Assembly (NCBI GenBank): GCA_002336805.1
Contig: DDEZ01000010.1
Span: 74,895 to 138,894, forward strand
DNA: 64,000 bases
Direction of reading: 5' to 3'
DNA from: Bacteroidetes bacterium UBA1941
GTDB taxonomy: Bacteria > Bacteroidota > Bacteroidia > Chitinophagales > LD1
Shown here: positions 12,251-59,066 of the stretch, piece by piece
How positions within the stretch are numbered: position 1 is the first letter of the stretch
Layout of the letters: each line of letters opens with the position of its first letter
The notes under the pieces: generated by a model
Databases searched by the model: none
Told to the model about the DNA's origin: nothing
The model's input: only the letters and a program-made list of their open reading frames with translations
Translations under genes and position numbers: made by a program

Positions 12251-12254
12251 CAGA

Positions 12255-13145: not shown

Positions 13146-13262
13146 ACAGGATTGTGTTTAACCAAAAATACCCTTTCGCAGTGTGCGAAAACGTTAAATT
13201 TCAACAAGTCACGGCAATTAATTCACATGTGTCAGGGATTTGTCATTTTAACGTTGAACCAT

Positions 13263-13292
13263 TTGTTTAGGCTATTTATATGATTAGATTTG
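13263..13292 (+). promoter_or_regulatory. Bacteroidota-type promoter (TTG-N19-TAgaTTTG) for the M43 protease gene
   Basis: TTG at 13263-13265, a 19-nt spacer, and TAGATTTG at 13285-13292. It lies 34 nt upstream of the GTG start at 13327. Confidence 0.45.
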
Positions 13293-13326
13293 TTATCGTT
13301 TTATTATCATTTAAAAACCGAAAAAG

Positions 13327-15498: not shown

Positions 15499-15522
15499 TC
15501 TGAAAGATCTCTATAGAAAAAA

Positions 15523-15550
15523 GGGTAGTACGGCAGTACTACCCTTTTTT
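15523..15550 (+). terminator. rho-independent terminator after the M43 gene
   Basis: gggtagtac / gtactaccc 9-bp stem, loop ggca, followed by TTTTTT. Confidence 0.7.
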
Positions 15551-15575
15551 ATTGGTACTCCTTCTTTAGGAAATG

Positions 15576-15608
15576 AAAAGCCCCGGCAGATATCCTGCCG
15601 GGGCTTTT
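15576..15608. terminator. bidirectional hairpin terminator (serves lpdA on the minus strand)
   Basis: gccccggcag / ctgccggggc 10-bp GC-rich stem, flanked by AAAA on the left and TTTT on the right. It lies 22 nt past the lpdA stop. Confidence 0.7.
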
Positions 15609-15629
15609 CAATAAAAATATTGTGACGTA

Positions 15630-27991: not shown

Positions 27992-28032
27992 GACACGACA
28001 TTTATAACCTAAACAAATAAAGTAGCCCCTCA

Positions 28033-29907: not shown

Positions 29908-29925
29908 TAAACCAACCCATAAGCT

Positions 29926-29960
29926 AACGGCTGGCAGGATCATCTTCGCCAGCCGTTTTT
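29926..29960 (+). terminator. rho-independent terminator after phoD copy B
   Basis: aacggctggc / gccagccgtt 10-bp stem, 12-nt loop, then TTTTT. Confidence 0.65.
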
Positions 29961-30008
29961 ATTTGAGGATATTTTATACATTCATCGGATAGATCAAAAC
30001 CAGACCAG

Positions 30009-31811: not shown

Positions 31812-31876
31812 GGTCGTTGATTTTACCATAGCGTAATGTGAGATTCTGCTTTATTTGTAGCAATCAACTGATCGCT

Positions 31877-38869: not shown

Positions 38870-41800
38870 ATGCGTACCGCATTCCGATTGGCAGCAGTTT
38901 CCTTTCTGTTTCTGCTCGCTGCCTGCAACCTGAAAAACAGAGTCAACCTAGTTTCCACCAATGCCAAAGATGAAGTGCCGGTCCTCGGCAATCTCGTCTT
39001 CACCTTTGACAAAAACCTCGTAGGCGATACTATGCTCAACGCATGGGATACCACGCAGTACATCCGCTTTGATCCGCCTATCTCCGGGCGGTTTCAGTGG
39101 ACGAGCTCATACGAGCTGACCTTCTCTCCGGATTACAGCCTCGATCCGGCCACAGACTACCACGCTGAGGTGACCAGCAAACTGACCTCACACTCGATCT
39201 ACTCAGTAGGCAAGATACCTGACATCAATTTCCATACACCCTATCAGCGGCTGGAGTCCGGCAATGCGCTCTGGACGACCATCGATGAAAGTTCGCACAC
39301 ACCTATAGGCCAGCTGGAGCTATTCTTTTTCTACAAAGTAGATCCGGCGCAGCTCAAGGATAAACTCTCTATAGAGGTGGATGGCGCCAAGGCTGACTTC
39401 AAGGTACTGACCACACAGGCCGATGAGCACATCCTGGTGAACCTGACCACGCTGAAGATAGAAGACAAGGACTACCAGATCAAAGCCACCATCGCACCGG
39501 GCATCACACCATACGGCGGCAAGACAGGCACCAAACAGCCGATAGAATACAAGACCACGCTGCAGTCGCCATACATCCTCACGGTAAATAACATCGAGGC
39601 AGAGCATGATGGCAATACCGGTACTGTACACCTCTATACCTCGCAGCAGATGCTGGAAGAAGGGCTGGACAAGGCGATCAGCTTTGACCCGGCGGTGTCA
39701 TTCAAGACGCAGGTGACGCAGGACGGCCTGATACTGACCTCAGACAAATTTGACGTGACCAAGGAGTACACGCTGACCATCAAGGCCGGTGTGAAAGGCC
39801 GGATAGGTGGTGTGCTAAAGGAGGAATACTCCCACTCTGTCGCCTTTGGCCAGCTGGAGCCGTCTATCAGGTTTACCAATCAGAAAGGCGTGTACCTGAC
39901 GCCTAAGGGCGCAAAGAACATAGAGGTGCAGATCATCAATGTGCCTCAGGTGCAGGTGAGCATCTCCAAGATATATGAGAATAACATCCTGGCCTCAGGC
40001 CGCTACAGCTACTATGATGATGACGGCGATAGCGGTGACGGCTACGTCTCTGCTGACGGTGAGCGCAACTATGGCGATAACCTGCAGGTAGGAGACAAGG
40101 TCTATGAGACCACCATCGAGACTAAGAATCTGCCTAAGAAGGGCAATAGCCGCCTGTTCAAATTTGACTTCCCTGATAAGCTGCGGGAGTACAAGGGGAT
40201 GTACAAGATCACTATCCGCTCTCAGGGGCAGTACTACCTGAATGAGAGCCGCTATGTATCGCTCTCAGATATCGGCCTGATAGCCAAAGATGGCAGGGAT
40301 AAGATGTTTGTCTTTACCAACTCTATCAAGACCGCGCAATCTATGGCTGGCGTAGCAGTATCTGTATACGGCGCTAATAACCAGGTGATGGGCACCGGCA
40401 CGACCAATAATGACGGTGTGGCTGAGATAGAGCTGAAGCACCGCGACTTCACAGGCTTTCGTCCGGCGCTGATCATAGCCAAGACACAGCAGGGAGACTT
40501 CAACTATATGCCCTTCAATACCACCCGAGTGGAGACCTCACGCTTCGAGGTAGGTGGCAAGAAGGCGAACAGTACGGGCCTTGACGCCTTTGTCTATAAT
40601 GAACGTGATATGTACCGCCCGGGTGAGACGATCCACTCCTCAGTGATCGTCCGTGACCAGCGGTGGCGGAGCCCCGGAGAGATACCGGTGCGACTGAAGT
40701 ACCTGCTGCCAAACGGCCAGGAGCTGAAGTCATATCGCAAGACGCTGAACGATGAGGGCAGCGTAGAGGTGGCGCTGGAGCTGTCTCCGGCCAGTATCAC
40801 AGGTAGCTACTCGCTGGAGGTCTACACCTCCAATGATGTGCTGCTGGCTACCAAGAATATCATGGTGGAGGAATTTATGCCGGACAGGATACGCGTGACC
40901 ACCAGCCTGGACAAGCCATACCTCAAGCCGGGCGATAAGACCAACCTGAGCATCAACGCCATGAACTTCTTCGGTCCGCCGGCGTCTAACCGCAACTATG
41001 AGGTAGAGATGCAGATCAGTGCCAAATATTTCTCACCAAAGAAGTACAGCAGCTATAGTTTCTCCCTGGCCAATCAGACCACGGAGTTCAATAAGATAGA
41101 GCGCACGGGTACTACAGATGAGAAAGGCAATGCGAGTGAGCAGTTTGAAGTGCCAAAGGAATACATCAATAACGGTGTGCTGGAGGGCGATATCTTTGCT
41201 ACGGTGTTTGACGAGTCGGGCAGGCCTGTGAGCAGGCGGTCATCGGTAGACATTTACACGCAGGATGTATTCTACGGTATGGACCGCGATGGCTACTACT
41301 ACTATCCGCTCAATCAGGTCATCAAATTTCCGCTGGTGGCGCTGAATAAGGATGAGAAACCCGTCAGCACGCAGGGCCACATCGTGGTCATCAAACATGA
41401 CTACAAGACCGTACTGAGCCGCAGCAGCGAGTATTTCCGCTATGAGTCTCAGAAGGAGGACCGCACCATCGTAGACCAGCTCATCAATATCAGCGGGGAG
41501 AATACCGTGTACTCCTTTGTGCCAAAGACACCGGGCGACTATGAGATCCGCCTGGCCAAGCCGGGTGCAGATGCCTACGTGATGTACAGTTTCTACAGCT
41601 ACGGCGGCTATGGGTATAATACGAATACATCCTTTGAGGTCAATACGGAGGGCAACATAGATATCAGCCTGGATAAGGAAAAATACAATGCGGGAGAAAC
41701 GGCCAAGGTGCTCTTCAAGGCGCCATTCAACGGTCGTATCCTCGTCACGCTGGAAAGCGACCATGTGATAGATCATTTCTATATCAATACGGACAAGCGC

Positions 41801-44269
41801 ACTGCTACTGCTACGCTGAACCTGAAAGCCGACTATGTGCCTAACGCGTACATTTCAGCTACACTGATCAAACCGCACGAGGAGACAGACCTGCCGCTGA
41901 CGGTGGCGCATGGCTACCTGCCCATCATAGTAGAGGAGAAGGCCAACAAGATCCCTGTGCAGATCATAGCGGAGAAATCTGTCCGCTCCCACACCCGCCA
42001 GAAGGTGACGGTGAAAGCCGCTCCCGGCTGCAAGATCACGCTGGCTGCGGTGGATGAAGGTATCCTCCAGATCACGGGCTACAAGACGCCTGATCCGTAT
42101 GGCTTCTTCTATCAGAAGCGTGCGCTGGATGTGAATTCATTTGACCTGTACCCACTGCTTTTCCCTGAGATAAATGGCTCTATCAGCAGCACCGGTGGTG
42201 ACGGCTCTGATATGTCTAAACGAGTGAACCCGATCAAGAACAAGCGCGTGAAACTGCTCAGCTATTGGAGCGGCATCACCCAGGCCAATGGAAGTGGCGA
42301 AGGGCGCTATGAGTTTGATATTCCGCAGTTCTCCGGAGAGGTGCGGCTCATGGCGGTGGCGTATAAGGACAAGTCCTTTGGCAGTGCCGATGCGCACATG
42401 ACGGTGGCTGACCCTATCGTGCTGGTCACCTCGCTGCCGCGCTTTATCAGTCCGCGAGATACGATAGATGTACCTGTCACTATTTCTAATACTACTACGA
42501 CTAGTACCAATGCATCTGTGACGGCCAAGGCCGAAGGGCCGATACAGTTCGTCGGCTCGGTGTCTCAGTCCGCTACTGTGAATGCGAAAGGGGAGGCGCG
42601 TGTGATGTTCCGCCTCGTGGCCAATGGTGCTCCTGACGAGGCCAAAGTAACGGTGACCGTCAATGGCGCCGGTGGCAAATATGAAGACGTGACCGATATC
42701 ACCGTACGTCCCGCAGCCTCGCTGCAAAAGGGCAATGGCAGCGGCGTGATAGATGGCGGCACGGCCAAGACCGTGGAGATAGGCGACCCGCGCTTTATCC
42801 CCGCTATGGCGGACTATAGTGTGGTGGTGAGCCGCTCGCCTATGGTGCAGTTTAGCGATCACCTCACGTACCTGGTGCAGTATCCGTATGGCTGTACGGA
42901 GCAGACGGTGTCGGCGGCTTTCCCGCAGCTGTACTTCCAGGATCTGAGCGGGCTGATGAGTCCTACTTTGGCCAAGACTGCCAACTACAACATCAATGAA
43001 GCGATCCGCAAGATCAAGATGCGCCAGCTCTACAATGGCGCGCTGACCCTCTGGGATGGCGAGGGCTCTGAGTGCTGGTGGGCCTCGGTATATGGTGCGC
43101 ACTTCCTCATAGAGGCTAAGAAGGCAGGCTATGATGTCTCTGACGACCTGCTGGACAAGCTGCTGGAGTACCTCAATGCACGCCTGCGCAATCACGACCT
43201 GATCACCTGGTACTACAACCGTGGCCTGAATAAAAAGATAGCGCCACATGAGGTAGGCTATAGCCTATATGTACTGGCCCTGGCGGGCAAGCAGGACCTG
43301 AGCACGATGAACTACTACAAGTCCAATCCGCAGCTGCTCACTACTGACTGCAAATACCTCCTCTCTGCGGCCTATGCGTTGGCGGGGGACAAGGGCAAAT
43401 ACAAGGAGATGCTGCCGTCTACATTCGTAGGTGAAGTATCTGATAAGGAGACTGGTGGCAGCTTTGCCTCTGCGGTGCGTGATGAGGCCATAGCGCTGAA
43501 TGTGCTGGCCGAGGTAGACCCGCAGAACCCGCAGATACCGATCATGTCACGGCACGTGTCAGAGTCTATCAAGCGGGAGTATTACCTGAGTACGCAGGAG
43601 CGCGTGTTCAGCTTCCTCGCCCTCGGCAAGGTGCTGCGTGCAAATGCCTCTGCGACGGTCACAGCCGATATCAAGGTGAATGGCAAGGTGGTTGGTTCTT
43701 TCACAGGGCAATCACTGAAACTCAGCAAGAAGAAACTAGGCGGCAGCAAGATAGAACTGGTGACCAAAGGCACGGGCAAGCTGTACTACTTCTACGAGAA
43801 TGAGGGCATTACGGCAGATGGCTCCTTCAAGCAGGAGGACAGTTATATCAAGGTGCGCAAGGAGTTTTATGACCGCTTCGGACATCAGCTCACGTCGCTC
43901 AATTTCAAACAGAATGACCTCGTGATCGTACGCCTGAATATAGAGAGCAGCTACAACCGGTCTATAGACAATGTGGTGATCACCGATATGCTACCGGCTG
44001 GTTTTGAGATAGAGAATCCGCGGCTGAAAGAAGTGCCGGGCATGGACTGGATCAAGGATGCGTCCACACCTACCGCCTCAGACTACCGCGACGACCGTGT
44101 CAATCTCTTCACAGACCTCTACACCGGCCGTCCGCAGCACTACTACTATGCCGTGCGCTGTGTCAGCCCGGGTGCCTTTATCATGGGGCCTGTGATGGCA
44201 GATGCCATGTATGCGGGTGAGTATCACTCCTACAATGGTGGGGGAGTGGTACGGATCACGCAGAAGTAG
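38870..44269 (+). CDS. bacterial alpha-2-macroglobulin family lipoprotein with thioester motif
   Basis: 1799 aa. Lipobox LFLLLAAC. Repeated MG-domain beta patterns. Thioester GCTEQ at codons 1341-1345 (nt 42890-42904) within QYPYGCTEQTVSAAFPQLY. The downstream alpha-helical TED part and C-terminal receptor-binding-like domain resemble YfhM/ECAM. Confidence 0.9.
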   Translation: MRTAFRLAAVSFLFLLAACNLKNRVNLVSTNAKDEVPVLGNLVFTFDKNLVGDTMLNAWDTTQYIRFDPPISGRFQWTSSYELTFSPDYSLDPATDYHAEVTSKLTSHSIYSVGKIPDINFHTPYQRLESGNALWTTIDESSHTPIGQLELFFFYKVDPAQLKDKLSIEVDGAKADFKVLTTQADEHILVNLTTLKIEDKDYQIKATIAPGITPYGGKTGTKQPIEYKTTLQSPYILTVNNIEAEHDGNTGTVHLYTSQQMLEEGLDKAISFDPAVSFKTQVTQDGLILTSDKFDVTKEYTLTIKAGVKGRIGGVLKEEYSHSVAFGQLEPSIRFTNQKGVYLTPKGAKNIEVQIINVPQVQVSISKIYENNILASGRYSYYDDDGDSGDGYVSADGERNYGDNLQVGDKVYETTIETKNLPKKGNSRLFKFDFPDKLREYKGMYKITIRSQGQYYLNESRYVSLSDIGLIAKDGRDKMFVFTNSIKTAQSMAGVAVSVYGANNQVMGTGTTNNDGVAEIELKHRDFTGFRPALIIAKTQQGDFNYMPFNTTRVETSRFEVGGKKANSTGLDAFVYNERDMYRPGETIHSSVIVRDQRWRSPGEIPVRLKYLLPNGQELKSYRKTLNDEGSVEVALELSPASITGSYSLEVYTSNDVLLATKNIMVEEFMPDRIRVTTSLDKPYLKPGDKTNLSINAMNFFGPPASNRNYEVEMQISAKYFSPKKYSSYSFSLANQTTEFNKIERTGTTDEKGNASEQFEVPKEYINNGVLEGDIFATVFDESGRPVSRRSSVDIYTQDVFYGMDRDGYYYYPLNQVIKFPLVALNKDEKPVSTQGHIVVIKHDYKTVLSRSSEYFRYESQKEDRTIVDQLINISGENTVYSFVPKTPGDYEIRLAKPGADAYVMYSFYSYGGYGYNTNTSFEVNTEGNIDISLDKEKYNAGETAKVLFKAPFNGRILVTLESDHVIDHFYINTDKRTATATLNLKADYVPNAYISATLIKPHEETDLPLTVAHGYLPIIVEEKANKIPVQIIAEKSVRSHTRQKVTVKAAPGCKITLAAVDEGILQITGYKTPDPYGFFYQKRALDVNSFDLYPLLFPEINGSISSTGGDGSDMSKRVNPIKNKRVKLLSYWSGITQANGSGEGRYEFDIPQFSGEVRLMAVAYKDKSFGSADAHMTVADPIVLVTSLPRFISPRDTIDVPVTISNTTTTSTNASVTAKAEGPIQFVGSVSQSATVNAKGEARVMFRLVANGAPDEAKVTVTVNGAGGKYEDVTDITVRPAASLQKGNGSGVIDGGTAKTVEIGDPRFIPAMADYSVVVSRSPMVQFSDHLTYLVQYPYGCTEQTVSAAFPQLYFQDLSGLMSPTLAKTANYNINEAIRKIKMRQLYNGALTLWDGEGSECWWASVYGAHFLIEAKKAGYDVSDDLLDKLLEYLNARLRNHDLITWYYNRGLNKKIAPHEVGYSLYVLALAGKQDLSTMNYYKSNPQLLTTDCKYLLSAAYALAGDKGKYKEMLPSTFVGEVSDKETGGSFASAVRDEAIALNVLAEVDPQNPQIPIMSRHVSESIKREYYLSTQERVFSFLALGKVLRANASATVTADIKVNGKVVGSFTGQSLKLSKKKLGGSKIELVTKGTGKLYYFYENEGITADGSFKQEDSYIKVRKEFYDRFGHQLTSLNFKQNDLVIVRLNIESSYNRSIDNVVITDMLPAGFEIENPRLKEVPGMDWIKDASTPTASDYRDDRVNLFTDLYTGRPQHYYYAVRCVSPGAFIMGPVMADAMYAGEYHSYNGGGVVRITQK

Positions 44270-47712: not shown

Positions 47713-48669
47713 ATGGGCAGTACTGAATTCTTAAATCTTTCTGACAAGGATAAATACTACTACTTTACCTCATGTATTGATACTGAAGAGCAACTCGAAG
47801 ACTTTTGGAAGGAGTTAGTAGAAGTGAAGCAGCGTAAGGAGTTTATATTTAGAGGAGTAGAAGAAGCTAGGTATAAACTGTATAATTCTGCGCAGCGGTA
47901 CTTTTTGGAATACAAAGATTCAAAATTATACTGCGTTGGTTATGATTTGTTTATACAAAATAGCATTGAGACAATTCGCACGTGGAATAATAATAGCGTT
48001 GAACGTTATTTAAGTCAAAGAGGCATAGGTGCGAATAGTATAGCGTATCTGAGTCTGATGCAGCATTTTGGTGTTCCAACTCCTCTATTGGATTTTACTT
48101 ATAATCCTTTTGTAGCTTTGTATTTTGCATCCAAATTCACAAAGGTTGAGTCATGCGTAAATCAAATTGATAATTATTCATCATTGATTCTGGTGCATAG
48201 TCAACATTTCATTATCCAAAATGCGTTGGATTATTTTCAGCAACTTTTGAAATCTTATGATGATGGTGTTGTACCTTATCGAGCACTAAAGTTTGCTCTT
48301 TTTCTACTGTTCGATAGTAATAATGATGTTTTCAAAATTACCAATAACCACAATATCATAAATCAAGAAGGAGTATTATTCTTTAACGATCATGCGAAAC
48401 TACCTTTGGAAGAATATTTCACTACAACGAGTAAATACGCCAAAGCATTAAGAGGGCAGGATGTAAATGATGGTGAGAATAGATTATTTGCTTGTTGGAA
48501 TATTTCTAAGCGTTTGCATAGTATTATTCAAAGGAGACTAAGAAAGGATTTCTCAATTGATAGAGAATTTTTGTTCCCGGACTTTACGAAACTTGAATCT
48601 GCGTTTCATAGTTCTGTCGAAAGATACAATCGTCAATTTCCCCCGCCGGAAAGTCCTATGTGGCGATAA
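47713..48669 (+). CDS. FRG-domain protein (function unknown)
   Basis: FIFRGVEEARYKLYNSAQRYF (the F/Y-R-G motif) and MQHFGVPTPLLDFTYNPFVALYFA (the conserved second block of the FRG domain). The gene is visibly AT-rich relative to both neighbours. Confidence 0.85.
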   Translation: MGSTEFLNLSDKDKYYYFTSCIDTEEQLEDFWKELVEVKQRKEFIFRGVEEARYKLYNSAQRYFLEYKDSKLYCVGYDLFIQNSIETIRTWNNNSVERYLSQRGIGANSIAYLSLMQHFGVPTPLLDFTYNPFVALYFASKFTKVESCVNQIDNYSSLILVHSQHFIIQNALDYFQQLLKSYDDGVVPYRALKFALFLLFDSNNDVFKITNNHNIINQEGVLFFNDHAKLPLEEYFTTTSKYAKALRGQDVNDGENRLFACWNISKRLHSIIQRRLRKDFSIDREFLFPDFTKLESAFHSSVERYNRQFPPPESPMWR

Positions 48670-49598
48670 AGCATCTTATCATACCGCATCACCACAGAGA
48701 TGTCTTTGCCCCGCAGATAGGAGAGTAGCTCCTGCTCCGGTCCCCTGTGTGTGAGCAGCACAAAGTCGCCACCCCAGGCGCCGAGAGATTTGACCTCACC
48801 CCAGTAGTCGGAGAATAGCTGCGACTTGATCGTAGGCGTTTGGAGTGCCTCAGATACGATGGCCTCATGCTCGCGGATGATCTGCTCCATCTTTTCCAGC
48901 GTCTGGCTTTGCAGCATGCTGTCGGTCAGTTTGCTCAGCCATATCACGGCTTCTTTATTGGCCTTGATGCGTTCGCGGTAGGAGGTGATACTGGTGGAAG
49001 AGACGACCTTCTTGCCCGTATAGGCAAAGTACAACTGCTCTGCATACGGCGGCAGGAAATGAACCTGCTCCCACGTAGCCTTGCCGTCTTTCAGCGCGTA
49101 TACTATCGGCTCATCACTCCCGGCTACGGCTACGTCATAGCCCGAGCCGCCCATTGTAGCGTGCAGCAGTGCCACTCCATCCACACCAGCCCATGCAGAC
49201 AGGCAGTACACGAGTGTAGAGCTGGTGCCTAGTCCCCATTCATTAGGAAACTCGAGACTGGTCTCTACGGCTATATCATTGTCTCCGAAGAGAAAGGACG
49301 GATTCATTAGTCTCGCCTGCTGGAGCATCTGAGAGAGTGTGCGTGCGTCTTTGCTATCAGTATTGATGCACTGCAGCGTCTGCTTGTCAAAAGTGAGATG
49401 CAGCCAGGGTTCTTTGAGGTGATTTAGCGCTATCCAGTAGAGGGTATTGCTTTGCCCGCTCAGTTCTTTCACGCGTAGGTGCTGGCCAAATTGTACGGGT
49501 ATGGTCAATACTTTAGCTCCTTCCAAAGCAAAATACTCGGAGGTCAGCATGAGTTTGCCGTGGCCGTAATAGTGGTGCTGGTCGGATGTGTGCTGCAC
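48633..49598 (-). CDS. GHMP-family kinase of the Bacteroidota mevalonate pathway (GYDIA-type)
   Basis: GHGKLMLTSEYFALEGAKVLTIP, GLGTSSTLVY (the GHMP ATP motif) and GGSGYDVAVA (the GYDIA-like motif, as I recall the family name). Its GTG start overlaps the HMGR stop by 1 nt (TAGTG). Confidence 0.72.
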   Translation of the reverse strand: MQHTSDQHHYYGHGKLMLTSEYFALEGAKVLTIPVQFGQHLRVKELSGQSNTLYWIALNHLKEPWLHLTFDKQTLQCINTDSKDARTLSQMLQQARLMNPSFLFGDNDIAVETSLEFPNEWGLGTSSTLVYCLSAWAGVDGVALLHATMGGSGYDVAVAGSDEPIVYALKDGKATWEQVHFLPPYAEQLYFAYTGKKVVSSTSITSYRERIKANKEAVIWLSKLTDSMLQSQTLEKMEQIIREHEAIVSEALQTPTIKSQLFSDYWGEVKSLGAWGGDFVLLTHRGPEQELLSYLRGKDISVVMRYDKMLYRHIGLSGGGN

Positions 49599-50941
49599 TA
49601 GCTGCTCTTTCGTAGCGTTTCGAGATAGTCGCGTACTGACGATACGGAGATCGTCTTATCCTCAAAGTAAACCCTCGCTTTCTCAGCCTCAGTATCTGTG
49701 GCCTGGTACTGCGCGAGGATATTGGTGAGGTGCATCTTCATATGGCCCTTCTGTATGCCGGTAGTGGTCAGGGAGCGCACTGCGGCGAAGTTCTGCGCCA
49801 GGCCTACTGCCACGATCACAGACATGAGCTCCTTTGCATTAGGATTGCCCAGCAGCTCCAGGGAGCGCTTGGCCAGCGGGTGTAGCGAGGTAAGGCCACC
49901 CACGGTACCGATAGCCAGCGGCATGGTCATACCAAAGGTGAACACACCATCTTTTACCGTGCAGTCACTGAGACTGCGATATTGGCCATCACGACTGGCA
50001 TAGGTATGTGCGCAGGACTCTACCGCGCGGAAGTCATTGCCGGTAGCCATCACCACGGAGTCTATACCGTTCATGATGCCTTTATTGTGCGTAGTGGCTC
50101 TGTATGGATCTATGGTAGCGATGGTCACCGCCCGGCGGAATTTCTCCGCAAACTCCTGTGCACTCATCTTGCCTCCCTCAAAGGTGCCAAGCTCTTCTAT
50201 CTTACATGAGACCTCGCAGCGCACCACGCAGTCTGGTGTATAGTTAGAGAGGATGCACATCACGATCTCGATGTCTTTCTCCGTAGGAGTGAAGATCGGG
50301 CTCTCGTCCATCATGTCCTTGAGCAGTGCGCCAAACTCCTCCAGGCAAGAGTTGATAAAGTTGGCCCCCATAGAGTCTACCGTCTCAAAGTAGCCGCGTA
50401 TCTGGTAGTAGTTTGGCTCGATGTGAGAGAAGTCTATCAGCTCGAGGTCCTTGACCCCGCCACCGCGCTCCTCCATCTTGGCAGTGATAGGCTTGACGCC
50501 TGCTATCAGCTTGCTCTTTATCTCTTTGAAGTAGGCTATGAATTTATCCTTGTCACCCTTATAGATGATATGTACCTGGCCGATCTTGACTGTAGACACC
50601 ACGGTAGATTTAAATCCGCCACGTGTCAGCCAGAACTTCGCCGCATTGGACGCTGCCGCTACCACAGAGCTTTCCTCTGTGACCATTGGCACGGCGTAGA
50701 CCTTGTCATTGATCTTAAAGTTGGGCGCGATACCAAAGGGTACGGGGAAATTGGCGATCGTGTTTTCGCTAAAGCCGTCGAGCAGCTTCTGCGATTCTAT
50801 ATTGTCATGCCAGAATCCGGCAAACTCATTGAGTACCTCGATAGGATTGGCATAAAGGAAGTTTTTGGCTATCCATTTTATCTTATCGCGCTTGTTGAGT
50901 TTCGAGAAACCCGTGATGATCTGACCTTCTTCCTCCGTCAT
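49598..50941 (-). CDS. hydroxymethylglutaryl-CoA reductase, class II
   Basis: ENTIANFPVPFGIAPNFKINDKVYAVPMVTEESSVVAAASNAAKF, DSMGANFIN and ATGNDFRAVE match the class II (bacterial) HMGR blocks. Confidence 0.9.
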   Translation of the reverse strand: MTEEEGQIITGFSKLNKRDKIKWIAKNFLYANPIEVLNEFAGFWHDNIESQKLLDGFSENTIANFPVPFGIAPNFKINDKVYAVPMVTEESSVVAAASNAAKFWLTRGGFKSTVVSTVKIGQVHIIYKGDKDKFIAYFKEIKSKLIAGVKPITAKMEERGGGVKDLELIDFSHIEPNYYQIRGYFETVDSMGANFINSCLEEFGALLKDMMDESPIFTPTEKDIEIVMCILSNYTPDCVVRCEVSCKIEELGTFEGGKMSAQEFAEKFRRAVTIATIDPYRATTHNKGIMNGIDSVVMATGNDFRAVESCAHTYASRDGQYRSLSDCTVKDGVFTFGMTMPLAIGTVGGLTSLHPLAKRSLELLGNPNAKELMSVIVAVGLAQNFAAVRSLTTTGIQKGHMKMHLTNILAQYQATDTEAEKARVYFEDKTISVSSVRDYLETLRKSS

Positions 50942-51039
50942 GCCGCGCTAAAATAAGTTTTCGCTCTCACACAGACAATTGCCTGAAAGCCAAATATGAG
51001 GATCATCGGTAGTTTGATAGACAACGCAGGTAAGTTTCA

Positions 51040-52410
51040 CTAAGCAAAAACCTTTTCTGCCACGCTGAAAGTGGCTCTGGTAAACATGCCCGGACGCTGG
51101 CTCAGCACCAGCGGGGAGATGATATGCACGGCATTGCGGATCATGCGGTAGCTGCGGCTGATATTAGCCGGAGTGGGCCGGGGCAGGATGATCCTGCGCG
51201 CACCATGCACCGCTACGGCAAAGAAATGCCGGATCAGTTTATTGCTGTCCCTATTGATGGCCGAGAGGAGGGAGAGGGGCACCTCTGAATTTTTGCCCCC
51301 CTGCTGCAGATAGCTGTAGCAGGCCTCTTTCAGATCCGGGTCACTCATTACCTTATAGAGCGCATCGGCCAGGATATTGATGCTGGCATTGGCTGCATAG
51401 CGTGTTTCATAGAAGGCGGCTACTGCGTTTTCTATGTTTTCCTGCGTAAAGCTCTCGCGGATGGCTATCAGCCTGTCAGCCAGATTGTGTACATCTGTCA
51501 GGGCTACAGTCATGCCGCCGCCGGTGAGGGGATGGCGCATATTCAGTGAGTCGCCTACGAGTACAGCACCGGCTTTCAGTCGCGGATTGGCAGGTATCAG
51601 GTGGTTTGGCATCACACGAAATTTGCCTTCTTCTACCGCACGGAAGTATGCCGGCTGTATTTCCTTTGGCATCTGGCTGCCGATGGTCTCGCGGAGGTAG
51701 TGCGTCAGTTCCTCGCCTTTGCGTGGTGCCTGGTCTGAGGGGAAGTCTATCAGTACGCGCGTCTCCTCAGACGATACCGGATACACCAGCACCGGACTCG
51801 GCTCCGCCGCTATCACATGCCCGTGACCGGGAAATGGTAGCTCACAGTCCTTCATCAGCAGGCCGAGAAAGTAGCTGCTCACCGTCTTGGTCGTGTCAGA
51901 CAGCTTCTCGCGAAAGGCCGAGAACATACCATCACACACGATGGTCAGCGGTGCAGACACGAGAGAGGTAGCATCGGCTCCTTTAAGGATATATTGTACG
52001 CCGGAGATGACACCATCTGCTTCTGTGAGGCTGACTGCATTGCCCTCCAGTACGGTGATATTGTTTTGGGCTAAAAGCTCCGCACGGAGTGCCTGCAGCA
52101 GTTTGCCATTGCGCAGGCCACGGCCTGTCTGTGCGCCCGGATACTCTATGGAGAAGTGCTGGTCACGCAGGAAGAGAGCATAGCCGGTGATCTCCTGTGC
52201 ATCATAGCCCTCCAGCGCCTTGCTGAGGCCCATCTGCTCTAGCTGTGTCACACCGCCGGGCTGCATCAGCTCACCTACTATGCGGTCCTGCTCACGCATA
52301 TCTTTCTCCACCACCGCTACGCGGAAACCATGCCTGCCCAGATAGGCAGCTATCGAGGCACCAGCCACGCCGGCACCTATCACGCAAATGTCATACTTAC
52401 TAGCACTCAT
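51040..52410 (-). CDS. squalene monooxygenase (squalene epoxidase, ERG1-type flavoprotein)
   Basis: YDICVIGAGVAGASIAAYL (the FAD GxGxxG), IVGELMQPGG (the ERG1-family GEL(L/M)QPGG motif), and VGDSLNMRHPLTGGGMTVAL. Confidence 0.85.
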   Translation of the reverse strand: MSASKYDICVIGAGVAGASIAAYLGRHGFRVAVVEKDMREQDRIVGELMQPGGVTQLEQMGLSKALEGYDAQEITGYALFLRDQHFSIEYPGAQTGRGLRNGKLLQALRAELLAQNNITVLEGNAVSLTEADGVISGVQYILKGADATSLVSAPLTIVCDGMFSAFREKLSDTTKTVSSYFLGLLMKDCELPFPGHGHVIAAEPSPVLVYPVSSEETRVLIDFPSDQAPRKGEELTHYLRETIGSQMPKEIQPAYFRAVEEGKFRVMPNHLIPANPRLKAGAVLVGDSLNMRHPLTGGGMTVALTDVHNLADRLIAIRESFTQENIENAVAAFYETRYAANASINILADALYKVMSDPDLKEACYSYLQQGGKNSEVPLSLLSAINRDSNKLIRHFFAVAVHGARRIILPRPTPANISRSYRMIRNAVHIISPLVLSQRPGMFTRATFSVAEKVFA

Positions 52411-52429
52411 CTCTTGATTCTTGTCTCTA

Positions 52430-53632
52430 TCAGAACAGCACCGCCTTCTGCAGATCGATCTCCTCCATAGGTTGTATCTTACTCTTATAGCGGATCTTGT
52501 GGAGATTGGCTATGATGGTGTGGCAGCGCTCCTTGGTCAGGTCGTAGTGCGGGTCGTTTTTGTCCAGCTTTTTCAGGATGTCGTTTGCAAATTTCTCCAT
52601 CACCTTATGCACGCTCTCCATGTCTGTGGTATGCAGCATCAGCACGGCGGCTATGCCCTTGCGGATCTTGACCACCTCACGGTACACGTCAGGGTTGTTG
52701 TAGATCTTGGCCAGGGTGGCTATGGCCATCACCTGGGGTATAGCGCAGAAGCGGAACACCTGTGGATGGCGTATAAGGCTCAGATAGTCAATGCAATCAC
52801 CAACATATTGTAACGCATCGGTTACCAGATCATTGAGACAGGCACGGCTCTCGGCAGAGGTCGGATCCTGCATCAGCTCCTCCAGGCGGTGGGTGTACTT
52901 ACCCCATATTTCCTTTGGCCAGAAGCTACGGCCGAGGCTCAGGTCCTCATAGTAGTCGCGGGTGATATTGGTCTTCTGCAGCAGCAGGCCCATAGAGTTG
53001 GACAGCTTCAGTTGGTCTTTGAGCGCAGCGCTCTCTATACCTGAGGCAGAGAAAAGGCCCGACAGGCCGATACCCACGATACCCGCCACATAGTGGCAGT
53101 AGTGGTCATAGTCATGCAGGGTCACCAGCTTGCGCTCGGCAAAGTCTGCCATGCCGTTGCCCATCTTCCTGGTACTGGCCAGGATCACCTGCTGATAGTC
53201 TATCTTGAGAGATTTGAAGACGCGGATCACTTTATCAAAATTGGCCAGCAGCACGCGGTAGTCGTCAGAGTCACCCACCCCTTTGATCTGCCAGCCATCC
53301 TCCACACACTTCATGTGAAACTCGCGCAGCAGCGGCAGGCGCAGCTCGGCAGGGTAGAGCATATCATCCTCTACAGAGTCCAGGCCGCGGAGTACGAGGT
53401 AGTAGATACAAACAGGATCGCGCAGCTCTGTCGGCAGCTGATTGATGACCACGGCAAAGGAGCGGGACACCTTATTCAGCGCAGCATAGCAGAAGTCGCG
53501 GTCGCTCAGCTTCTCTGCCAGTACCTCCAGCGGCTCGTCGCTCTGGCGGATGTCAAAGCCGCCAAACTTGAGGCGAAACATGGCGATGATTTCATTAGGT
53601 CGGTGTGCGGATCTGATCAGGTCGCGTACCAT
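52430..53632 (-). CDS. squalene synthase (farnesyl-diphosphate farnesyltransferase, eukaryote-like ERG9 type)
   Basis: CYAALNKVSRSFAVVI, YYLVLRGLDSVEDDM (the first Asp-rich motif), MGLLLQKTNITRDYYEDL (the second Asp-rich motif) and GRSFWPKEIWGKY. All closely parallel eukaryotic SQS blocks. Confidence 0.9.
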   Translation of the reverse strand: MVRDLIRSAHRPNEIIAMFRLKFGGFDIRQSDEPLEVLAEKLSDRDFCYAALNKVSRSFAVVINQLPTELRDPVCIYYLVLRGLDSVEDDMLYPAELRLPLLREFHMKCVEDGWQIKGVGDSDDYRVLLANFDKVIRVFKSLKIDYQQVILASTRKMGNGMADFAERKLVTLHDYDHYCHYVAGIVGIGLSGLFSASGIESAALKDQLKLSNSMGLLLQKTNITRDYYEDLSLGRSFWPKEIWGKYTHRLEELMQDPTSAESRACLNDLVTDALQYVGDCIDYLSLIRHPQVFRFCAIPQVMAIATLAKIYNNPDVYREVVKIRKGIAAVLMLHTTDMESVHKVMEKFANDILKKLDKNDPHYDLTKERCHTIIANLHKIRYKSKIQPMEEIDLQKAVLF

Positions 53633-53857
53633 AATTTTTTATTTTCGGGTTAAGTGAAATGTTTGTTTTTATCAATGAAATACCCGTATCTTGCAACTAT
53701 AAAGTTTAAGCCAACGGATACTTTGTTTAAATCAAAGCTAGATTAAGTCGGTTGAACTGCGAAATTTTATCGGCAAAAAATTATACACAGGATTTTTCCA
53801 CCTGAGGCCTTCGGAAAGCAATACGCAGATAGCGTTTTGATACAGAAAAGATTAAAC

Positions 53858-56128
53858 ATGTACGAAAAGAAAACCTGGGCTCACTGGCATCTCACATCTG
53901 ATCGCGGCAGGTCGGTCTGGCACTTCCGCTCACCGCAGGGGCTGCCGGCAGACTGGCGCGGACCGCTGTCTACAGATCAGCAGGCCTTCCTCCGCGAGAT
54001 GGAGGAGGACTTTGTCTATGACAAAAAGCAAAACCCCAATAGCGCAGACTGCGTCTACCGCAGCCAGCGTGCAGTGATCAGTACGGACCGTGACCAGCCA
54101 CACCGTGATGCCCGCCAGTCTGTACGCGAGGCGATCAACTACTATCAGACCCTCCAGACCACAGACGGCAACTGGCCCGGAGACTACGGAGGCCCTATGT
54201 TTCTACTGCCGGGACTGGCCATCGCCTCCTATGTCACAGAGAGCCCCTTTACCGCGCCGGAGGCCATGCTGATGCGCCGCTATATGCTAAACCACCAGAA
54301 TGATGACGGCGGCTGGGGCCTGCACCTGGAGGGGCACTCTACCATGTTTGGGACGGTGCTGCAATATGTAGCCTTACGGTTACTAGGCGCACGGGCAGTG
54401 GATACTGAGGTGGTCAGAGCGCGAAAATGGATACAGGTACACGGTGGTGCTACGGGCATACCGAGCTGGGGCAAGTTCTACATGAGCCTGCTGGGCCTCT
54501 ATGAGTGGGAGGGCTGCAACACCCTGCTGCCAGAGCTATGGCTCCTGCCAAAATCACTGGCTATCCATCCCTCACACTACTGGTGCCATACGCGCATGGT
54601 GTACCTGCCCATGGCCTACTGCTATGGCCACAAGATCGTGATGAAGCCTACTGCGCTGATACAGGAGCTGCGTACGGAGCTCTATACTGAGCCCTACGGC
54701 CAGATCCGCTGGGCTGCCTGCCGGGACCTGTGCAGCGATACGGATATCTATTTCCCGCAGTCAGCTACGCTGAAATCGCTGAACGGTGTACTCAATGTCT
54801 ATGAGAAAATGCACCTAAAGGGTACCCGCAAAAAGGCGCTTCGCTTTGCGCTGGACTATATCAATGCCGAGGACCAGCAGACCAACTATATCAATATCGG
54901 CCCGGTCAATCAAGCGCTGAACTCGATAGCCGTATGGCATGCCTATGGGCGCGAGTCGGAGCAGTACAGAAAGCACCGTGAGCGCTGGGCCGACTACCTC
55001 TGGGTGGCAGAAGATGGCATGAAGATGCAGGGCTACAATGGCTCTCAGCTGTGGGATACGGCCTTTGCCATGCAGGCGGTGAAGGAGGCCGCGATGGATG
55101 GTGAGTTTGCACAGATGGTGCAGCGTGGATATGACTATGTAGACAAAAGCCAGATACGCGGTGAGGTGGTGGACAGAGAGAAATTCTTCCGCCACATGCA
55201 GATAGGTGGGTGGCCCTTCTCTACGGTAGATCATGGCTGGCCTATCACAGACTGCACGGCAGAGGGCCTCAAGACCTTTATGCTGCTGAACCCTCAGGCT
55301 GAGCCGGAGCGGCTCTACCAGGCTGTGAATGTGCTGCTTTCCTACCAAAACGCTGACGGGGGCTGTGCCAGCTATGAGCTGACCCGCAGCCCTCAGTGGC
55401 TGGAGCTGCTCAACCCCTCAGAGGTCTTTGGCAATATCATGATAGACTACTCCTATACGGAGTGTACCTCGGCCTGTGTGCAGGCGCTGATCGCCTTTCA
55501 CCAGCGGTATCCGGAGCATCGGCTAGAGGAGGTGAAAAGCTTTATCGAGAAGGGTGTACGCTTCATCCTCTCGCAGCAGCGGGCTGATGGCTCGTGGTAC
55601 GGCTCGTGGGCAGTGTGCTTCACCTATGGTACCTGGTTTGGTGTGGAGGCGCTGAGCCGCTATGTAGCTATGAATGGCGCTGGCTGGCAGATGGACATCA
55701 GGGACAAGGCCAAAACTGCTTTGCAGAAAGCTACCGGGTTCCTTCTAGCCAAACAAAACGCTGATGGCGGCTGGGGAGAGTCTTTTGAGAGCTGCGTGCG
55801 CAAGGAATACATCCCATCACCACAGTCTCAGGTGGTCAATACGTCTTGGGCGCTGCTGTCGCTCTTAGCCGCAGGCTGTACACAGTATGACAAACTGGAG
55901 CATGCTGCGCAGCTTCTTATTTCCCGGCAGGAAAAGAACGGCGACTGGCCGCAGGAGAATATCAGTGGCGTATTCAACCACAACTGCATGATCACGTACA
56001 CGAGCTATCGCAATGTGTTTCCTATCTGGGCGCTGGGCAGGTTTGCGCGCAGCGGCAATAATCTACTTGAATGGACTGCGGAGGACATAGTGGCGCGGTT
56101 TGAGCCTGCCGGTAAAGAGGCCCATTAG
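53858..56128 (+). CDS. oxidosqualene cyclase, cycloartenol-synthase-like
   Basis: Start taken at ATG 53858 (the track start at 53837 is TTG). VDHGWPITDCTAEGLK carries the OSC DCTAE catalytic motif (nt 55250-55264), not the DxDD of squalene-hopene cyclases. Repeated QW motifs are present (QNDDGGWG, QNADGGCASYE, QRADGSWYGSW, QNADGGWGES, QEKNGDWPQE). Confidence 0.9.
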   Translation: MYEKKTWAHWHLTSDRGRSVWHFRSPQGLPADWRGPLSTDQQAFLREMEEDFVYDKKQNPNSADCVYRSQRAVISTDRDQPHRDARQSVREAINYYQTLQTTDGNWPGDYGGPMFLLPGLAIASYVTESPFTAPEAMLMRRYMLNHQNDDGGWGLHLEGHSTMFGTVLQYVALRLLGARAVDTEVVRARKWIQVHGGATGIPSWGKFYMSLLGLYEWEGCNTLLPELWLLPKSLAIHPSHYWCHTRMVYLPMAYCYGHKIVMKPTALIQELRTELYTEPYGQIRWAACRDLCSDTDIYFPQSATLKSLNGVLNVYEKMHLKGTRKKALRFALDYINAEDQQTNYINIGPVNQALNSIAVWHAYGRESEQYRKHRERWADYLWVAEDGMKMQGYNGSQLWDTAFAMQAVKEAAMDGEFAQMVQRGYDYVDKSQIRGEVVDREKFFRHMQIGGWPFSTVDHGWPITDCTAEGLKTFMLLNPQAEPERLYQAVNVLLSYQNADGGCASYELTRSPQWLELLNPSEVFGNIMIDYSYTECTSACVQALIAFHQRYPEHRLEEVKSFIEKGVRFILSQQRADGSWYGSWAVCFTYGTWFGVEALSRYVAMNGAGWQMDIRDKAKTALQKATGFLLAKQNADGGWGESFESCVRKEYIPSPQSQVVNTSWALLSLLAAGCTQYDKLEHAAQLLISRQEKNGDWPQENISGVFNHNCMITYTSYRNVFPIWALGRFARSGNNLLEWTAEDIVARFEPAGKEAH

Positions 56129-57304
56129 CGCATTCACTATCGGGTTGCGGTGTCTGAGATAGCCGTACATGGGCTGCGGTATAGCACCTATGGTACTTTT
56201 CACCTCAGGTGCTGTGCGGCCAAAGTGCAGCAGGCGCAGGTCATGCTCCGTAGCATAGCGCACTACATCATATAGCATCCGCTGGTACAGGTTGTGCTCC
56301 TTATTGACAGAGTAGTCTATGCCGCAGTAGTGTACCTCCGTCTTGTACGGCAGGATGAAGAGCGACATAAATCCCACCATCCGTCCATCCAGAAAGTACC
56401 CGAACACCTTGTACATATCCGGACTCTGGCGCAGCTGTGCAGGGTAGTAGTCCTTTGGTAGTTTGGCTATGTTGAAGTCTGCTTTGTCAGCCACATTGCG
56501 GTAGAGCTGGTACGCCCGCTCTATATTCTCCTCCAGCTCGTCTGCGGTCAGCTGGCGCGAGGTGAGCTGCTGGCTGGTACTGATGATCTTTTTGGCGCGT
56601 ACGCGGTACTTGGACGAGATGGCAGCCAGATAGTCGTCAAAGCTGTGCCACTCCTGCGGCAGCCGCATACTCATATCAGCCTCTACATAGATACGCTTAT
56701 AGTTATTGGTCAGGAATGCCTCATCAAAATCACCCACCGGCTCATACATATCAGGCATGAGCACGGCCTTGATGTATTTGCGCTGAGCGAGTATGTGGTC
56801 TATAGTATGTGAGAGAAAATAGGACCGCTCCTGTATGGTAAACTCAGGCAGGAAAGAGATGCCCTGCTCACCGGTGATAAAGAGATTGCCGCTCACCAGC
56901 AGGGGGATATCTATTTTGGCCACGAGGCCTTTGGTCAGGTTGAGCAGCTTATTTTTCAGGCCCTCATTATCCTGCGGGAAATAAGCCGTAAGATTAGTAC
57001 CGCGAAACCTGACCACCTGAAAGTAGCTGACACCTATCAGGCGTCCCTCGCGGCGGATCAGGGCGTAGAGAAACTCCATCTCGCCCGTCAGTGTGCGCTC
57101 CAGCAGCTGGAGATAGGCTGGCTGTAGCAGTGGCTGGTCGTGGCCTATAAATCGGAGCCAGTCTGCCTCCGGCACTGCGGCTATGGTATCGTACAATGAA
57201 ATATCTACAGCGGTCTCCCGGCTGATAGCAGACGAGCGGGGACAAAGACTCACAGACATGCAGCTGGACATATCTGACAGGGTTTGGTAATCGGGAGTAG
57301 GCAT
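56063..57304 (-). CDS. GNAT-fold FemAB-like / DUF482-like acyltransferase family protein
   Basis: 413 aa. The N-terminal LYDTIAAVPEADWLRFIGHDQPLLQPAYLQLLERT, the central DYLAAISSKYRVRAKK and the C-terminal GIDYS...LYQRMLYDVVRYA resemble the FemAB-like GNAT arrangement. This is a family-level call only. The 3' end overlaps the OSC 3' end by 66 nt. Confidence 0.45.
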   Translation of the reverse strand: MPTPDYQTLSDMSSCMSVSLCPRSSAISRETAVDISLYDTIAAVPEADWLRFIGHDQPLLQPAYLQLLERTLTGEMEFLYALIRREGRLIGVSYFQVVRFRGTNLTAYFPQDNEGLKNKLLNLTKGLVAKIDIPLLVSGNLFITGEQGISFLPEFTIQERSYFLSHTIDHILAQRKYIKAVLMPDMYEPVGDFDEAFLTNNYKRIYVEADMSMRLPQEWHSFDDYLAAISSKYRVRAKKIISTSQQLTSRQLTADELEENIERAYQLYRNVADKADFNIAKLPKDYYPAQLRQSPDMYKVFGYFLDGRMVGFMSLFILPYKTEVHYCGIDYSVNKEHNLYQRMLYDVVRYATEHDLRLLHFGRTAPEVKSTIGAIPQPMYGYLRHRNPIVNALMGLFTGRLKPRHYVLRSPFK

Positions 57305-58154: not shown

Positions 58155-59066
58155 TCACACGTTCCAAACCTGCCCTGCGGCAAATAGAATAGAAAATAGA
58201 AACGTAGAGATAGCCAGCTGCGGCAGGTAGGGGTCAAACTCACGCGGCTCTTTCACACGCCATACCAGCAGTACATTGCGCCAGAAGAGGGGCATGGTGA
58301 GTATGAAAATAAAAGCCACAGACGAAACCAGGTGCATGGCTACAAAGGCGATAGCAGCAGCCCAGCCTACGGTGATCAGCAGTGTGTGGTAGATACGTGC
58401 ATTGCGGTCGCCCATTTTTACCACGATGGTGTTCTTGCCGGCTTTGGCATCGCTGAGGCGGTCGCGCATGTTATTCAGGTTGAGCACGCCGGTGGCAAAG
58501 CAGCCCACCGCCACACCCGGCAGCAGCACCGACCAGTCCAGCACATGAGCCTGCAGGTAGTAGCTACCACCCACCCCCACGAGGCCGAAGAAGAGCAGCA
58601 CAAACACATCTCCCATACCGTGATAGCCATAGGCACCCGAGCCGATGGTATACTTTAGCGCAGCGACTATGGCACCGATACCGATAGCCAGGAATAGGAG
58701 CGCCGTGACAGCCTGCTCACGCAGCGAGGCGAAGATCAGCCCACAGCCACTCAGCAGGCACAGTGCGCCACAGATGATGATAGCAGTACGTATCTCTGCA
58801 AAGGACAGGATACCGGCCTGTATGGCCCTCTTAGGGCCTATGCGGTCATCGTTGTCAGTGCCTTTCTCACTATCGCCATAATCATTGGCCAGGTTGGATA
58901 ATACTTGTAGCAAAAGCGTAGTGAGCAGTGCCAGCCCGAATACCAACCGACTAAACTGCTGGTGATAGGGGATAAACGATCCCACAATTATACATGAGAA
59001 GGAGAGGGGCAGTGTACGCAGGCGAAAGGCGTACAGCCAGGCTTTGACTTTTGACGGCTGATCCAT
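58155..59066 (-). CDS. menA: 1,4-dihydroxy-2-naphthoate polyprenyltransferase
   Basis: UbiA-fold. LSNLANDYGDSEKGTDNDDRIGPKR (the NDxxD first motif) and NNMRDRLSDAKAGKNT (the second Asp motif). Nine TM segments. Confidence 0.88.
   Translation of the reverse strand: MDQPSKVKAWLYAFRLRTLPLSFSCIIVGSFIPYHQQFSRLVFGLALLTTLLLQVLSNLANDYGDSEKGTDNDDRIGPKRAIQAGILSFAEIRTAIIICGALCLLSGCGLIFASLREQAVTALLFLAIGIGAIVAALKYTIGSGAYGYHGMGDVFVLLFFGLVGVGGSYYLQAHVLDWSVLLPGVAVGCFATGVLNLNNMRDRLSDAKAGKNTIVVKMGDRNARIYHTLLITVGWAAAIAFVAMHLVSSVAFIFILTMPLFWRNVLLVWRVKEPREFDPYLPQLAISTFLFSILFAAGQVWNV

Follow-up and report, generated by a model that had tools for sequence, protein, structure and literature searches.

Bacterial sterol synthesis touches on two debates, the reading of sterane biomarkers and the origin of eukaryotic sterols, and a locus in which sterol genes stand beside mevalonate genes raises the question of whether the two are bound into one unit or are neighbors that can part. 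Here, we investigated such a locus in a stretch of 64,000 nucleotides from Bacteroidetes bacterium UBA1941 (Bacteroidota, order Chitinophagales; assembly GCA_002336805.1, contig DDEZ01000010.1, positions 74,895 to 138,894), which is hereafter called the window. It encodes a squalene synthase (SQS), a squalene epoxidase (SQE; also known as squalene monooxygenase, SQMO), and an oxidosqualene cyclase (OSC) next to an HMG-CoA reductase (HMGR) and a kinase of the GYDIA family. An earlier note on this DNA had proposed that the mevalonate (MVA) pathway genes and the sterol genes on the same strand form one transcription unit. We consider it quite probable that the locus is a functional three-gene protosterol module, likely one for cycloartenol, that lies beside an ordinary HMGR-GYDIA pair, is separable from it, and leaves HMGR with a probable upstream element of its own.

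In such a module, SQS would join two farnesyl diphosphates into squalene, SQE, a flavoprotein of the ERG1 type, would use O2 to turn squalene into 2,3-oxidosqualene, and OSC would cyclize the latter to a tetracyclic triterpenol, most likely cycloartenol. The module (51040-56128) would be seated between a FemAB-like gene and the HMGR-GYDIA mevalonate pair. The 225-bp region shared by the divergent SQS and OSC genes would probably drive both SQS-SQE and OSC, and HMGR-GYDIA has probably kept an upstream element of its own, although read-through from SQS-SQE may reach it in addition.

The genes of the locus follow the order MDH, GSCFA, GYDIA kinase, HMGR, SQE, SQS, OSC, FemAB-like gene, and MenA. 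The minus strand carries SQS (400 amino acids, 52430..53632), SQE (456 amino acids, 51040..52410), HMGR (447 amino acids, 49598..50941), and the kinase (321 amino acids, 48633..49598), with 19 nt between SQS and SQE (52411-52429), 98 nt between SQE and HMGR (50942..51039), and a one-base overlap at position 49598 between the HMGR stop codon TAG and the kinase start codon GTG. OSC (756 amino acids, 53858..56128) is encoded on the plus strand across an AT-rich region (53633..53857) with a GC content of 32.9%, compared with 50.9% for the whole window, and the FemAB-like and MenA genes beyond it are again on the minus strand. The longest open reading frame (ORF) of OSC begins with TTG at 53837, but the ATG at 53858 is favored because the homologues measure 756 amino acids. 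The ORF list agrees with the earlier note on the ends and strands of the five genes, the sequence itself bears out the two gaps, the overlap and the AT-rich divergent region, and all quoted motifs were located. Purifying selection acts on each of the five genes, with dN/dS ratios against three relatives of 0.02-0.17 (SQS 0.02-0.03, SQE 0.03-0.11, HMGR 0.02-0.04, kinase 0.05-0.06, OSC 0.10-0.17), a range that matches the neighboring MDH and MenA genes.

By its profile scores, the SQS is a single-enzyme, eukaryote-type squalene synthase and neither part of an HpnCDE system nor a phytoene synthase. It matches SQS_PSY (PF00494, 9e-49) and the equivalog model TIGR01559 (444 bits, cut-off 287) compared with 37-45 bits for the HpnC/HpnD models, it scores 306 bits against human SQS and 36 bits against phytoene synthase among solved structures, and it carries the Asp-rich motifs DSVEDD (residue 85) and RDYYED (residue 225). 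The SQE has the Pfam SE domain (PF08491, 7e-85) and the motifs GELMQPGG (residue 46) and GAGVAG, and aligns over residues 6-439 with human SQLE (6C6N, 292 bits), with the next flavin monooxygenase at ~70 bits. A UbiH-like identity for this protein was rejected, since the UbiH-type models stay far below their cut-offs (Ubi-OHases 69 bits, cut-off 225) and SQLE fits far better; the earlier assignment to the ERG1 type is upheld by both profile and structure scores.

The HMGR (PF00368, 4e-89) is, by its model scores, a class II enzyme: it passes TIGR00532 just above the cut-off (274 versus 260 bits), whereas the NADPH-dependent class I model TIGR00533 gives 47 bits against a cut-off of 442. Its matches in the PDB range from 7N7S (527 bits) through the Pseudomonas mevalonii enzyme 1QAX (217 bits) to 6HR7 (32 bits), the weakest HMG-CoA reductase entry matched. 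The partner kinase had been called a GHMP kinase, which is supported by the NCBIfam GYDIA model NF040656 (314 bits, cut-off 225), the motifs GLGTSS (residue 122) and GYDVA (residue 153), and the predicted fold, but not by sequence searches of Pfam or the PDB. In Pfam, where the other four proteins all found their families, it matched none at E ≤ 0.001, GHMP_kinases_N/C included, and the PDB sequence search gave no match. Its AlphaFold2 model (pLDDT 89.9) best matches mevalonate kinases (TM 0.65-0.69), followed by the phosphomevalonate kinase structures 1K47/3GON (TM 0.64-0.66), a comparison that cannot tell the two activities apart.

In other Chitinophagales, the GYDIA kinase is part of a mevalonate operon. 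HMGR, GYDIA, MVD, and MVK follow one another in the housekeeping operon L086 (loci are cited by such L numbers), and GYDIA, MVD, and MVK do so in L083-L085. Because these operons already hold a canonical mevalonate kinase and a decarboxylase, the GYDIA protein would fill the phosphomevalonate kinase slot, and we infer from this context and the compatible fold that it acts as phosphomevalonate kinase in the mevalonate pathway of Bacteroidota; the locus thereby suggests a likely candidate for an enzyme missing from that pathway. The HMGR is equally similar to the unlinked homologue in L086 (72% identity) and to the sterol-linked homologue in L030 (73%), and it therefore looks typical of its lineage rather than like a paralogue imported with the sterol genes. 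Judged by this operon context and these similarities, HMGR-GYDIA is an ordinary housekeeping mevalonate pair.

Separability and transcription of the locus

The nearest genomes are metagenome-assembled genomes (MAGs) that go by the names Bacteroidetes bacterium SZAS-56/58/59 and "uncultured Chitinophagaceae". Proteins identical to those of the window were found in NCBI WGS project APMI01 and in the wastewater metagenome assembly PRJNA167559, and the type IX secretion system (T9SS) sorting domains and the GSCFA gene in the window are Bacteroidota traits. At least four metagenomic genomes share the layout of the window, which is identical in L001/L007, L002, L006, and L087, with OSC identities from 98% down to 69% (L087). 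In a related genome (L088), the same neighborhood consists of MenA, an oppositely oriented OMP gene, the FemAB-like gene, HMGR, and GYDIA, all but OMP in one direction, and an oppositely oriented GSCFA gene, and SQS, SQE, and OSC are absent. The SQE-SQS/OSC segment is separable because the same neighborhood exists in L088 without the three sterol genes, and HMGR-GYDIA stays behind. This empty-site relative amounts to a natural experiment in which the three sterol genes behave as dispensable. The FemAB-like gene lies 114 nt from HMGR there, and blastn found neither remnants of the sterol cassette nor flanking repeats at the site, the 3' end of FemAB being all that is shared. L087 and L088 (89% identity for HMGR, 82% for GYDIA, 80% for FemAB, and 85% for MenA) are more alike than either resembles the window, as judged from pairwise identities of few proteins. 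On this basis, loss of the three-gene module in the L088 lineage would be the simplest reading of these sequences.

The FemAB-like gene (56063..57304, minus strand; GNAT fold, PF04339 and PF13480) marks the right-hand boundary of the module and lies outside the sterol pathway. Its 3' end overlaps the convergent 3' end of OSC by 66 nt, and its PF04339 match (27 bits) falls right at the cut-off. It neighbors HMGR even in L088 and shows no association with OSC outside the clade of the window. On the other side of the locus, an FRG-domain gene (PF08867, 47713-48669, plus strand) between GSCFA and the kinase overlaps the latter by 37 nt at the 3' ends. The window and L001/L007 carry it and L002, L006, L087, and L088 lack it, a pattern that indicates a variable accessory insertion.

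The intergenic sequences also bear on how the locus is transcribed. The spacer between SQE and HMGR is near-invariant in four sterol-bearing relatives whose OSC proteins diverge by up to 20%, and it includes CATATTTG, which has one mismatch to the Bacteroidetes -7 box TAnnTTTG. The HMGR-proximal ~45 nt of the spacer (GATTGyC...GCGAAAnCyTATTTTAGCGCGnnATG) are conserved at the empty site of L088 as well, where they follow the FemAB-like gene. Since this upstream sequence is kept whichever gene precedes HMGR, HMGR would have its own promoter or leader, and the spacer fits the role of a candidate HMGR-specific control element. The divergent SQS/OSC region shows strong conservation in five relatives, and TAGCTTTG on the SQS (minus) strand at 53733-53740 is conserved, matches the same consensus exactly, and is a putative promoter element. 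A sigma-70 promoter scan, which is ill-suited to Bacteroidota, returned nothing in the key spacers. Folding of the SQE-HMGR spacer gave no significant RNA structure (z = -0.37), and a structured attenuator or riboswitch at this position was dropped as a candidate; Rfam and tRNA scans of the whole window came back empty.

The proposal that SQS, SQE, HMGR, and GYDIA form one transcription unit, in which flux through HMG-CoA reductase would be co-regulated with sterol synthesis, is in our view doubtful, but it has evidence on its side. The four genes share a strand with short gaps and a stop/start overlap, their order is kept down to 69% OSC identity, and no terminator is predicted in the SQS-SQE or the SQE-HMGR gap, which makes read-through from SQS-SQE into HMGR plausible. 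The other features expected of a single operon, lack of a separate HMGR promoter and evolutionary inseparability, were not found: in L088, HMGR-GYDIA still has the same adjoining upstream sequence with another gene before it, and the 98-nt spacer is conserved in the manner of regulatory regions. The tight packing in the window is also not shared by its relatives. Their SQS-SQE gap measures ~140-165 nt and contains a hairpin (L001 ~8437-8577, L006 ~8412-8576), and their HMGR and kinase genes are separated by ~70-110 nt with an ATG start for the kinase, so that the overlap is unique to the window and, on sequence comparison, a window-specific deletion. Moreover, HMGR feeds a general pathway in the MVA operons we examined, and a full tie to an accessory lipid seems unlikely. 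The earlier description of one transcription unit, wired directly to the mevalonate genes, is thus not supported as it was put. The hairpin in the L001/L006 gap is a perfect inverted repeat, TTCTTCTCTCTCC TTTGG AGAGAGAAGA.

Precursor genes beside sterol genes across Bacteroidota

The earlier note had counted Bacteroidota with sterol genes as a handful, which is out of date, as at least 236 GTDB species genomes contain a relative of the window cyclase; the best 80 are mostly MAGs of Chitinophagales or Flavobacteriales. Because the search patterns include Y381, the cycloartenol-type group is at least this large. Cycloartenol-type sterol genes are common in uncultured Chitinophagales of wastewater and soil. 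Clustering of the ORFs around OSC in 61 Bacteroidota-type loci gave as recurrent neighbors SQS (38 loci), SQE (36), polyprenyl synthase (23), HMGR (10), IDI2-like genes (9), AraC regulators (9), DUF2147 genes (6), and MVD/MVK (4). Genes for CYP51, Rieske/SDR C-4 demethylases, or sterol methyltransferases did not recur near OSC in these 61 loci, nor were they or homologues of sterol-transport genes present within the 64-kb window, for which the absence of tailoring genes had been noted before. The divergent SQE-SQS/OSC core occurs without HMGR in ~25 other Bacteroidota loci. Of the Bacteroidota OSC loci with long flanking sequence, about one third have dispersed genes. One Chitinophagales MAG (JAXLUJ01; L009/L083) has OSC alone, with SQS and SQE absent within 10 kb, and carries GYDIA-MVD-MVK on another contig from which HMGR is absent.

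Three layouts bring HMGR-GYDIA together with sterol genes. Besides that of the window, there is one (L030/L034/L039) in which OSC faces an oppositely oriented run of AraC, DUF2147, prenyl synthase, DUF1295, SQE, and SQS, with IDI2, HMGR, and GYDIA diverging from SQS, and a Fluviicola type (L067, L078, L081) in which nine genes abut in the order SQS, SQE, IDI2, HMGR, GYDIA, MVD, MVK, polyprenyl synthase, and OSC. The three layouts occupy three separate OSC clades in a rough neighbor-joining tree, which was midpoint-rooted, had no bootstraps, and served only to show that the HMGR-linked layouts are not nearest neighbors. These further layouts, together with the recurrence of polyprenyl synthase, IDI2, and MVD/MVK near OSC, also speak for the single transcription unit weighed above.

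The same distribution bears on the opposite view, that the adjacency of HMGR is functionally meaningless and that a mobile SQE-SQS/OSC module simply landed beside, or was retained by, a housekeeping pair. This view is favored by the presence/absence polymorphism at one site, the many contexts in which the three-gene core lacks HMGR, an HMGR identity that tracks lineage rather than linkage, and a GC content of the cassette slightly above that of the window (0.55-0.57 versus 0.51). By a back-of-envelope estimate, however, the chance of landing within ~10 kb of HMGR (a ~20 kb target in a genome of ~4-5 Mb) is ~0.5% per lineage, and because the linkage occurs in three separate OSC clades among a few dozen, it does not look like a mere landing accident. 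Prenyl synthase, IDI2, MVD, and MVK recur as neighbors, whereas known tailoring genes do not. We therefore regard a meaningless adjacency as unlikely. Within the phylum as a whole, the association with precursor supply is probably meaningful; the window shows this recurrent theme in partial form, and fuller instances exist. A broader claim, that the sterol genes of Bacteroidota are repeatedly joined to mevalonate and prenyl-supply genes as compact, co-regulated, and potentially mobile modules, with forms from the SQS-SQE-HMGR-GYDIA/OSC set of the window up to a nine-gene Fluviicola-type operon leading from HMG-CoA to cycloartenol, can be put forward only tentatively.

Some of these loci are noteworthy in themselves. 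In L030/L034/L039 (~12142-15751), the DUF1295, polyprenyl synthase, DUF2147, and AraC genes, a sterol-linked set that the window lacks, are co-stranded with SQS-SQE and are candidate tailoring or regulatory genes; the DUF1295 membrane protein (PF06966) has a weak NCBIfam match to isoprenylcysteine O-methyltransferase. The nine-gene Fluviicola-type operon also occurs in a complete genome labelled Glaciecola amylolytica (L081; CP034120.1, 2217283-2239487), whose OSC the neighbor-joining tree places as sister to the one from a Fluviicola MAG. As Glaciecola is a gammaproteobacterial genus, the record is either mislabelled or the result of a whole-operon transfer. A MenA-type prenyltransferase lies 2-3 kb from SQE in L033 and L036, which belong to two distant OSC clades, and one is present in the clade of the window, too (58155-59066 in the window), an association that may be due to chance.

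The product of the cyclase

The OSC matches both SQHop_cyclase_N and SQHop_cyclase_C in Pfam and passes the general cyclase model TIGR01787 (680 bits, cut-off 323). It scores 696 bits with the 2,3-oxidosqualene cyclase model TIGR03463 compared with 246 bits for the hopene cyclase model TIGR01507, and 700 bits with the structure of human lanosterol synthase (1W6K) compared with 141 bits for a squalene-hopene cyclase (SHC; 1GSZ). The DCTAE motif (residue 465) is the counterpart of D455-C456 in the human enzyme, DxDD is not present, and QxxxGxW repeats begin at residues 100, 147, 573, 633, and 691. The sterol assignment in the earlier note depended on the cyclase being an OSC and not an SHC, which the structure scores bear out, and the oxygen-dependent route from squalene through 2,3-oxidosqualene to a tetracyclic protosterol is supported by the enzyme families and can be refined to a cycloartenol type.

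In human numbering, the active-site residues are Y381, H449, I453, D455, W230, H232, Y503, F521, and N697, of which Y381, H449, and I453 correspond to Y393, H459, and I463 of the window protein; 16 Bacteroidota homologues keep these residues unchanged. Lanosterol synthases follow the pattern T381/C,Q449/V453 and cycloartenol synthases the pattern Y381/H449/I453 (Summons 2006, as cited in PMC4919349), and I453 was fully correlated with cycloartenol among the bacteria tested by Wei et al. 2016 (PMC4919349). Cyclases for eudoraenol and isoarborinol carry S230/Y232/Y697 (PMC12324236), and the substitutions W230S, H232Y, Y521V, and N697Y were reported to suffice for eudoraenol synthesis (PMC12324236, citing Banta 2017). 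These arborinol/eudoraenol substitutions are absent from the window OSC, which has W230, H232, F521, and N697. Because Y381/H449/I453 is present and the arborinol substitutions are absent, the predicted product is most likely cycloartenol.

A pentacyclic arborane-type triterpenol, as made by the Bacteroidota OSC homologue of Eudoraea adriatica, which yields eudoraenol and no sterol (PMC7306690, PMC12324236), or a hopene-cyclase-like conversion of squalene, is a highly improbable outcome to which a score under the TIGR03463 cut-off lends some room, as the OSC retains Y503 along with the four residues just named, has DCTAE instead of DxDD, scores three to five times lower with SHC models and structures, and is neighbored by an SQE that would provide the epoxide substrate. 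On the active-site residues and profile scores an arborinol-cyclase identity was rejected, as was a hopene-cyclase identity on the profile scores and DCTAE.

Several points weigh against the reading of a cycloartenol module beside an HMGR-GYDIA pair with its own control element. The OSC falls below the curated cut-off of TIGR03463 (696 versus 851 bits), a subfamily model that appears to have been fitted to another group of bacterial OSCs. The residue rule that separates cycloartenol from lanosterol synthases is empirical, and both the product and the operon structure of the locus are predictions from sequence. The candidate promoter motifs are weak and the one upstream of HMGR is mismatched; the window shows no enrichment of TAnnTTTG (31 sites versus 25 expected), and among its exact sites only that at 53733-53740 is relevantly placed. 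Finally, the linkage of HMGR-GYDIA in three OSC clades suggests an adjacency beyond an accident of module landing.

The rest of the window and comparison with known systems

The remainder of the window consists of ordinary housekeeping and phosphate-scavenging genes. The latter point to a strong capacity for phosphate scavenging and include four PhoD-like phosphatases, two of which carry T9SS sorting tails, as well as a PI-PLC-like gene of the Ca2+-dependent type (5383-8482 and 26111-33004). The window further encodes a bacterial alpha-2-macroglobulin of 1799 amino acids with MG, bait-region, and TED domains (38870-44269, plus strand) and a MenC-like protein (33008-34063).

OSCs of Bacteroidota have been described from Fluviicola and Eudoraea. 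Bacterial loci with adjacent SQMO and OSC genes are well described (PMC4919349, PMC7306690), and the present locus is a further example of this known type; the recurrent clustering with precursor genes is without a description in the literature we found. A literature search found no paper on a mevalonate-sterol linkage, the Chitinophagales OSC clade, or the GYDIA kinase. The remark in the earlier note that the arrangement had not been described holds to this extent, but the arrangement exists in public genomes, including the fuller nine-gene form of the Fluviicola type.

In their main text, Hoshino and Gaucher 2021 (PMC8237579) place the combination of MVA and SQS among steroid-producing bacteria only in myxobacteria and Dadabacteria, and Bacteroidetes go unmentioned there. 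The genes for MVA, SQS, SQMO, and OSC co-occur in the Bacteroidota loci, and the window thus combines a mevalonate route and single-enzyme SQS with sterol genes, which the main text of this influential analysis limited to the two other groups. If the functional predictions are true, Bacteroidota would join these two groups as the third lineage of bacteria to have MVA, SQS, SQMO, and OSC in a eukaryote-like combination, and the packaging of these genes in a single locus would bear on the transfer of sterol synthesis between bacteria and early eukaryotes.

The closest characterized counterpart is Fluviicola taffensis, which makes cycloartenol and no modified sterols and whose OSC and SQE genes have the locus tags Fluta_3214 and Fluta_3221 (Wei et al. 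2016, PMC4919349). Its gene order is inferred, since the spacing of the locus tags fits the nine-gene order and the L078 layout. Like the window, Fluviicola belongs to the Bacteroidota and combines SQS, an ERG1-type SQE, and an I453-type OSC with HMGR and GYDIA in one cluster. Its nine genes abut on one strand, whereas in the window only HMGR and GYDIA are linked and OSC is divergent; IDI2, MVD, MVK, and prenyl synthase, all part of the Fluviicola-type operon, are missing from the 64 kb, and protein identities between the two are just 35-55%. Loci of other uncultured Chitinophagales/Flavobacteriales, among them L011, L013, L015, L019, L022, L023, L040, and L045, show the same core architecture and orientation as the window, OSC identities of 55-60%, and a conserved Y381/H449/I453, but they have no HMGR/GYDIA beside SQE, and many have a polyprenyl synthase beside OSC.

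More distant systems share parts of the scheme. In Methylococcales (L077 Methylobacter and L079 Methylomonas lenta), OSC and an ERG1-type SQE are adjacent as in the window (OSC identity ~50-53%), but the two genes are co-directional, with OSC ahead of SQE, and SQS and mevalonate genes are not nearby. The eudoraenol (arborane) synthase of Eudoraea adriatica is likewise a Bacteroidota OSC-family cyclase next to an SQE, and the window enzyme differs from it in lacking the substitutions that define the arborinol active site. The eukaryotic ERG9/ERG1/ERG7 enzymes belong to the same families, with the same motifs, and align over their full length with the window proteins (306, 292, and 700 bits for human SQS 1EZF/3VJ8, SQLE 6C6N, and lanosterol synthase 1W6K, respectively), and eukaryotes and the window both combine a mevalonate route with a single-enzyme SQS. 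Unlike eukaryotes, the window has clustered genes, a class II instead of a class I HMGR, a GYDIA-family second kinase, and a cyclase predicted to be of the cycloartenol rather than the lanosterol type.

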